NCBI GenBank assembly: GCA_951406725.2
Contig: OX597821.1
Location: forward strand, 93,558,001 to 93,622,000
Direction: 5' to 3'
From: Octopus vulgaris
Taxonomy: Eukaryota
DNA length: 64,000 bases
This document shows positions 25,800 through 26,275 of the stretch, piece by piece (position 1 is the stretch's first letter; each line of letters opens with the position of its first letter). The notes under the pieces were generated by a model. That model did no database searches, had not been told where the DNA came from, and worked only from the letters and a program-made list of their open reading frames with translations. The position numbers and the translations under genes were made by a program.

Positions 25800-25851
<52 letters not shown>

Positions 25852-25852
<1 letters not shown>

Positions 25853-26049
25853 GGTCCCGGGTTGATTCGGGGTTAACCACAGTAAGTAAGGTACTCAATA
25901 CATAGCAGAGTAAAATTAATTTATTATATAGAAGGAGCTTCTACAGGACTAGTACTGTTTCATTCAAGAGAAATCTTCAGGAAGCTTCCTGAAGATTTCT
26001 CTTGAATGAAACAGTACTAGTCCTGTAGAAGCTCCTTCTATATAATAAA

Positions 26050-26053
<4 letters not shown>
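25852..26053. mobile_element. Family H2 element with a perfect 138-bp palindrome (25916-26053)
   Basis: Centre GAAG|CTTC at 25984/25985, no loop; inserted in (TA)n. Confidence 0.9.
25981..26035 (+). ncRNA. Type I hammerhead ribozyme motif (mirror copy on minus strand, 25934-25988)
   Basis: GAAGCTTC-CTGAAGA-T-TTC(TCTT)GAA-T-GAAA-CAG(TACTAGTC)CTG-TA-GAAGCTCC. Stem I AGCTTC/GAAGCT; stem III ACAG/CTGT; GUA triplet; predicted cut after 26027. Confidence 0.72.
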
Positions 26054-26089
<36 letters not shown>

Positions 26090-26092
<3 letters not shown>

Positions 26093-26275
26093 TAATCCAA
26101 ACGGGAAAACAGAAAAAACAACAACACAAGGAGGTGGAACAATTAAAGTATTATTATTAGGCGCTCAGGAAAAAGGGAAGAAGGAGGGTATGACATTTCG
26201 AGCGGAGCTCTTCGTCAGAAACATAAGAGAAAGAAAGATCCCGAAGTGGGCGAACGGAGGGAAAAAAAACTTTGT
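26090..26275 (-). mobile_element. Family H1 element with a minimal HHR motif at 26188-26222
   Basis: Minus strand GTTT-CTGACGA-A-GAGC(TCC)GCTC-GAAA-TG-TC-ATAC; homologous to 11945-12160. Confidence 0.7.

Follow-up and report, generated by a model that had tools for sequence, protein, structure and literature searches.

Of the elements described so far, the closest to the locus analysed here are EN+ Penelope-like retrotransposons (PLEs) of the Hydra clade. As characterized in PMC8557442, these have a single ORF in which a reverse transcriptase (RT) is followed by a GIY-YIG endonuclease, target (TA)n, and carry a hammerhead ribozyme near the 3' end; in File S2 of that source, most Hydra cores are CUGANGAU...UGAA. 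The clade includes Hydra-1_Obim of Octopus bimaculoides (Craig et al. 2021, PMC8557442). An inverted pLTR with a tail at only one end is known in EN+ PLEs (PMC3846280; PMC8557442 Fig. 2), and pairs of hammerheads on opposite strands were described in PMC4209133. Such head-to-head palindromes were read in PMC3846280 as the result of self-priming on an antisense template. According to the account in PMC11167929, the PLE protein of Anolis Poseidon nicks and extends both strands of its target, initiates at two internal positions by which the tail is defined, uses uncut RNA as template, and does not depend on ribozyme cleavage. The origin of the tandem and inverted repeats of PLEs and the role of their hammerheads were named as open questions in PMC8557442 and PMC3846280.

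The locus lies in a 64-kb stretch of the Octopus vulgaris genome, referred to here as the window. Computed on the window, positions 25916-26053 form a perfect palindrome of 138 bp with no spacer, just as an earlier note on this sequence had described. Its predicted fold had an MFE of -112.6 kcal/mol (z -28), and none of 200 shuffled sequences was equally stable. The whole insert, 204 bp at 25850-26053, sits in (TA)n, with target sequence at 25802..25849 on the left and, past a short A run, at 26060..26088 on the right. Two details of the earlier description were revised: the insert starts at 25850 rather than 25852, and the left 66 bases (25850..25915), which have no mirror counterpart in the palindrome and had been taken for the head, are instead the 3' tail of an element on the minus strand, present at one end only.

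Element positions are numbered with core base C3 as 0, so that stem I of the hammerhead starts at -6 and the predicted cut falls after +38. The tail-bearing arm (25850..25986, minus strand) extends from the element 5' end at -6 through the hammerhead to the tail end at +130 and matched bases 1-141 of the full-length unit carried by one genomic copy (L121) at 100%, with its last 4-5 bases overlapping the TA repeat. The tail-less inverted arm (25983..26053, plus strand) covers -6 to +64, a 100% match to unit bases 1-71. The sequence AGCT at 25983..25986 is common to both arms; these self-complementary first four bases of stem I are the centre of the palindrome. In full-length copies the 66-nt tail continues into the ORF (ATG at +176), and its distal end probably marks a start of reverse transcription, while the tail-less arm would have had a more proximal start at about +58 to +63. 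That the insert belongs to a PLE is close to certain, and we regard it as a stump-sized insertion of one with Hydra-clade motifs.

A sister insertion of an older subfamily is present at 12200..12370 (minus strand). Its palindrome, 12263-12370, consists of 47-bp perfect arms around a 14-nt spacer, and neither arm keeps the core, both stopping within loop 2. This agrees with the earlier description of a palindromic copy lacking the core, whose arms match each other at the two sites that had been named. Beside both palindromic copies, in TA repeats, is an unrelated short repeat with a minimal hammerhead-like motif (26089-26260, minus strand, core at 26218, and about 11948-12140), which is probably the end of another PLE family. 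The window also contains an unrelated inverted repeat at 5486-5568, whose perfect arms of 35 bp are separated by a 13-nt spacer.

A type I hammerhead descriptor matched the window exactly twice, at 25983..26033 on the plus strand and, as its mirror, at 25936..25986 on the minus strand, which bears out the claim that both strands read the same hammerhead. Both matches have the CUGANGA, GAAA and NUH elements and the three stems of a type I hammerhead, with a CUGAAGA core (at 25989 on the plus and 25980 on the minus strand), a 6-bp stem I of AGCUUC and GAAGCU, a 4-bp stem III and a GUA triplet. In the plus-strand motif, which has a Hydra-like core layout, stem I pairs 25983-88 with 26028-33, the core occupies 25989-95, stem II is 3 bp, and the GUA triplet at 26025-27 places the predicted cut after 26027; on the minus strand the cut is predicted after 25942. 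A scan of the window against Rfam returned no matches at gathering scores. The U-U pair at stem II had been called non-canonical. It is normal here, since most Hydra cores in PMC8557442 File S2 have the same form, and it is the usual core of that clade. Most of the changes between subfamilies are located at N7, in loop 2 or in loop 3.

In 1939 exact genome matches, stem I was preceded by ordinary element sequence. The hammerhead is therefore native to the element and was not produced by the inversion; the possibility raised in the earlier note, that non-palindromic copies would lack the 5' strand of stem I and the ribozyme would be a by-product of the inversion, was rejected on the same count. 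In the native RNA, the active fold was predicted to lie 1.6-4.5 kcal/mol above the MFE, owing to a local hairpin in which stem I's 3' strand is tied up. For the full palindrome the predicted gap was 78 kcal/mol, which supports the suggestion that read-through transcription would give a hairpin RNA with the ribozyme buried inside it. A separate group of 29 copies (L061-L089) have the core flanked by a perfectly extended stem I of at least 17 bp, a join via stem I complementarity, and would be expected to fold as better hammerheads than the parent.

Half of the first 30 matches to the tail motif (15) ran past the palindrome centre into a longer body. The parent unit is 5.2-5.4 kb and consists of hammerhead, tail, ATG at +176, an ORF of 713 aa, a low-complexity 3' UTR of about 3 kb, and hammerhead and tail again. 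Partial tandems, with hammerhead and tail (the pLTR) both upstream and downstream of the ORF, were found in copies L114-L123. The parent is a young PLE, and its full-length copies are in the same genome as the palindrome. The ORF, the only one, carries GLYRDD. Of 7993 candidates scored, 1081 were relatives of the parent protein at E ≤ 1e-10. A fold model built with 116 relatives reached a pLDDT of 92.9 (a single-sequence fold, pLDDT 34, was left aside), and its five best PDB structure matches were telomerase RT (TERT), with E from 6e-9 to 7e-8. The parent protein itself had no significant Pfam or PDB sequence match; PF01541 (GIY-YIG) was passed by two of the three relatives scanned in Pfam, and a VY...YIG motif is present in the parent translation, C-terminal to the RT.

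Together with its hammerhead pLTRs, the telomerase-like RT and C-terminal GIY-YIG endonuclease, both encoded outside the window, make the parent an EN+ PLE, and the inverted 5'-truncated copy with a one-sided tail is that expected of the group. Like the Hydra clade of PMC8557442, it has a single ORF with RT and then GIY-YIG, DKT in place of DKG, and RWR, a conservative variant, at the place of RWK. It also has a CxCx5C linker, CxxC and CxH around E and N, and no CCHH, as read by eye against section 11 of that source. Insertion in (TA)n and the canonical hammerhead layout, with the core near the 3' end, are likewise those of the clade. By its motifs the parent fits the Hydra clade; Naiad was rejected because the endonuclease is C-terminal. 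The hammerhead differs from the Hydra-1_Obim row of File S2, and the window family is therefore another family. At 5.2-5.4 kb, the unit exceeds the length that is general among Hydra elements (below 3 kb), owing to the 3-kb low-complexity 3' UTR, and it has thousands of copies and a longer loop 3. This is a new family within a known clade, and its layout was already known. While the ribozyme geometry given in the earlier note stood, that note had missed both the known PLE footprint of inverted pLTR plus tail and the full-length parent in the same genome.

Several other observations concern the parent family. Tandem arrays of its pLTR are found at G000:C2:64628578-64632019, C5:37481669-37488945 and C8:91475364-91483207, with units of 277, 333 and 271 bp, respectively, each holding hammerhead, tail and ORF start; each array flips orientation once. 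These arrays appear to be retrozyme-like and derived directly from the PLE. Non-LTR retrozymes (10.64898/2026.07.22.740005) are, like the window copy, non-coding PLE-derived ends with a type I hammerhead. Unlike them, the window copy is one inverted pair rather than a tandem array of hammerhead units, and it was not classed as a retrozyme. Among the best 32 endonuclease matches in G000, 31 have in common an open frame of 225 aa that is separated from that of the RT, and other parent-family copies have frames of 680-722 aa; this frameshifted lineage seems to be copied in trans, with the qualification that the query itself selects for the 225-aa frame. Other PLE-like ORFs have inserted into two copies. 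In L096, at about 4500-6430 from the tail, there is a frame of 641 aa that shows motifs of the same types along with a long insert rich in Asn; in L090, at about 3300-6300, there is a second stretch resembling RT/endonuclease. The family is also found in sequencing runs labelled as two other organisms and is therefore not confined to one species. No RNA run was among those listed with the family, and four runs of short-read contigs showed neither an RNA start nor editing.

Across the genome, a 20-base tail motif had 1312 exact matches and an older variant had 3656, about 5,000 together. Head-to-head cores within 24 bases of each other were found at 760 loci, and 236 loci had the exact centre of the window palindrome, searched with a pattern trimmed by one base on either side; of the 760 junctions, some two thirds differ from that centre. 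The sampled loci come from exact-match searches, mostly of the first part of one chromosome, and these favour young copies. Among the first 50 loci, 12 junctions were perfect and the remainder showed small losses or inserts. Of 120 copies selected by their tail, 43 had a long tail arm and 77 a short one. An inverted tail-less arm was found in 70 of the 77 short copies, although in two of these pairs the gap exceeds 150 nt and the arms may be separate copies, and 63 of the 70 tail-less arms end at +58 to +63. When 12 long copies were followed for 10 kb, 11 had an inverted arm, and inverted arms occur at all lengths up to kilobases. These data indicate that inversion is the usual form of the family and is made anew at each insertion. 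The same had been proposed, alongside homogenisation of the arms, from the two copies in the window, and the proposal holds up on the varied junctions and on the haplotypes that the two arms of a locus share.

The two arms provide a record of their templates. In 11 of the 70 pairs, the tail-less arm extends upstream beyond the limit of the tail arm, by 10-185 nt, and the tail is on the tail arm alone, so neither arm was copied from the other. In 16 long arm pairs with 32 polymorphic sites, 12 pairs were identical and 4 differed at one site, while the loci differ among themselves. Among 92 pairs of tail and tail-less arms, three differ at the loop-3 site that marks subfamilies, compared with 12 differences at 4258 other sites. 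A single RNA molecule does not explain the three discordant pairs, which give a hint, and only that, of two different RNA molecules per insertion; the long arms agree.

The arm ends are concentrated at one position. In the 120 tail-selected copies, 47 of 147 arm 5' ends were exactly at -6, the first base of stem I, 55 were at -5 to +4, and 7 were at -16 to -7. The AGCT overlap does not by itself account for this wall, because 23 of 60 imperfect pairs still have one arm at -6. Only one of the 147 ends was at the cut site (+37 to +41), indicating that cut RNA is not the main template, and hammerhead cleavage was rejected as the source of truncation. The 29 copies joined by stem I are ambiguous with respect to cleavage, as 6-7 bases of microhomology suffice without a cut.

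Free ends at -6 are mostly preceded by an extra G. It was found at 13 of 18 tail-selected loci (excluding 35 ends in native context, 18 perfect overlaps, and 12 ends whose G is ambiguous because it also fits the other arm) and at 8 of 10 loci entering the ORF (leaving out 5 ambiguous G ends), or 21 of 28 in all, whereas the native base before -6 is T or C in all six upstream variants. Genome-wide, next to a TA repeat, 27 ends read G on the sense strand and 8 read A, C or T (binomial p about 1e-10), in a search whose control pattern demands 8 TA bases against 7 for the G pattern and is blind to joins without an extra base; four of the 8 non-G ends look like remnants of a second arm. The Y-A at -7/-6 fits an initiator. 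An extra G at a full-length 5' end was read in PMC4038843 as a reverse-transcribed cap. The extra base could instead reflect a terminal-transferase preference at an uncapped end. Among eight ORF-entering copies with non-native upstream sequence (picked because their upstream was not a long native run), seven begin at unit bases 1-8 and the eighth 16 bases upstream. Five of those seven hold further segments that restart at base 1-4, as expected of template jumps from an RNA end.

The reading that we consider probable is that the stump would have arisen in the course of insertion itself, with the two nicked strands of the (TA)n target each priming reverse transcription of sense RNA. The arm ends and the extra G suggest that the RNA would start, capped, at the first base of hammerhead stem I (-6), the extra G being the cap read by the enzyme. 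Priming at two internal sites of the 5' pLTR copy, about +61 and +130, would give cDNAs of 67 and 137 nt, and priming at the downstream pLTR would give the inverted copies of kilobase length. Both cDNAs would run off the RNA, which was presumably uncut, at its 5' end, and their ends would anneal or be end-joined via AGCT or other microhomology, with AGCT producing the perfect class in about a third of cases. The ribozyme on both strands would then be a by-product of where the RNA starts rather than a device.

The arms share haplotypes, as they would if one cDNA, or an antisense RNA as in PMC3846280, had primed itself and been copied into the second arm, and such a fold-back is also favoured by the self-complementary AGCT and the 29 copies joined through stem I complementarity, in addition to the published reading of head-to-head palindromes as antisense self-priming. 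A copy cannot exceed its template, however, and in 11 of the 70 pairs the tail-less arm holds upstream sequence that is absent from the tail arm, which alone has the tail. At L136 and L191 the extra G at -7 is present on both arms, and a 4-base palindrome offers no loop for folding. Fold-back is therefore unlikely, and the data on two cDNAs do not fit the antisense self-priming reading of PMC3846280. A slightly less unlikely alternative, still improbable, is that the wall at -6 does not mark a transcription start, the RT having stalled on the folded hammerhead or the RNA end having been generated by splicing or by a nuclease. Stem I has its base exactly at -6, each of the six native upstream variants has YAG at its end, a possible 3' splice site, and PMC4209133 places a 3' splice site at helix I in Drosophila virilis Penelope; the 1939 matches with native upstream sequence also mean that copying often passes -6. 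Against a stall, the 3' strand of stem I has already been copied when the enzyme reaches -6, so that the helix is gone, and splicing at YAG would set the boundary at -4. The constant extra G and the restarts at base 1-4 fit run-off from an end, and read-through copies are expected from the downstream pLTR.

That 236 loci have one exact centre in common could also mean that a palindromic mini-element is copied as a unit, some perfect copies being of a second round, and that it is kept because its hairpin, whose predicted stability exceeds that of the ribozyme fold by 78 kcal/mol, suppresses the ribozyme or supplies ADAR or Dicer. We consider this very improbable, given that some two thirds of the 760 junctions do not have that centre, that one and the same centre is found in more than one subfamily, with arms that match (L142, L199, L205), and that inverted arms occur at every length up to kilobases, including 11 of the 12 long loci. 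An artefact of assembly or of chimeric reads, which the earlier note had allowed for, is hardly credible, because 760 loci have the same layout with many different junctions and a one-sided tail. In favour of an artefact, none of the short-read contig pieces listed spans the centre of the window palindrome with 31 bases on each side. Fixed arm ends, templated inserts at junctions and occasional differences between arms, over hundreds of loci, nevertheless speak against it, and short-read contigs of other studies contain the family and its native upstream sequence.

The locus resembles the inverted-pLTR insertions of other EN+ PLEs in its head-to-head inverted 5'-truncated copy, its palindromic junction and its tail at one end, and differs from the published ones in that the tail is 66 nt rather than 30-40, the TSD is unreadable in (TA)n, the junction lies on a sharp boundary with an extra G, and the data favour two sense-templated cDNAs. 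As for Poseidon in vitro (PMC11167929), there appear to be two internal tail-defining starts, downstream of the hammerhead and near the ORF start, on an AT-rich target with both strands extended and an uncut RNA template. The Poseidon start is said there to be without homology to the target, whereas both putative starts here are AU-rich, with a few bases matching (TA)n; PMC11167929 does not seem to deal with the joining of inverted arms. In L1 twin priming (10.1101/2024.08.27.596794), both target nicks likewise prime cDNA and the ends are joined by microcomplementarity. Twin priming is described there as a minority event with spurious internal priming, in contrast to the usual outcome that it would be here, with two fixed starts 70 nt apart and duplication of the whole copied stretch. 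A literature search that covered few subscription journals returned no account of a cap-derived G or of dual priming at PLE inversions.

A broader reading is that dual priming is the normal insertion route of this Hydra-type family, that the capped RNA, starting precisely at hammerhead stem I with self-complementary AGCU, thereby enables the cDNAs of the two opposite target strands to lock to each other and seal the break, that the conserved 5' end of the ribozyme acts both as the promoter start and as a handle for joining, its cutting being of lesser importance, and that the published antisense self-priming model is wrong. We offer this tentatively and lean somewhat against its holding in full.

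The palindrome itself is ordinary, a known footprint of PLEs. Its value is as a natural record of the PLE insertion step, in which thousands of young, nearly identical copies allow the RNA start, both priming sites and the join to be placed with single-base precision. The fixed meeting point of the two halves likely marks the start of the capped RNA and is thus a clue to how PLEs are copied. In addition, the family has spread many inverted repeats through the genome, nearly perfect and ranging in length from 70 bp up to several kb, which may be substrates for editing if they are transcribed.
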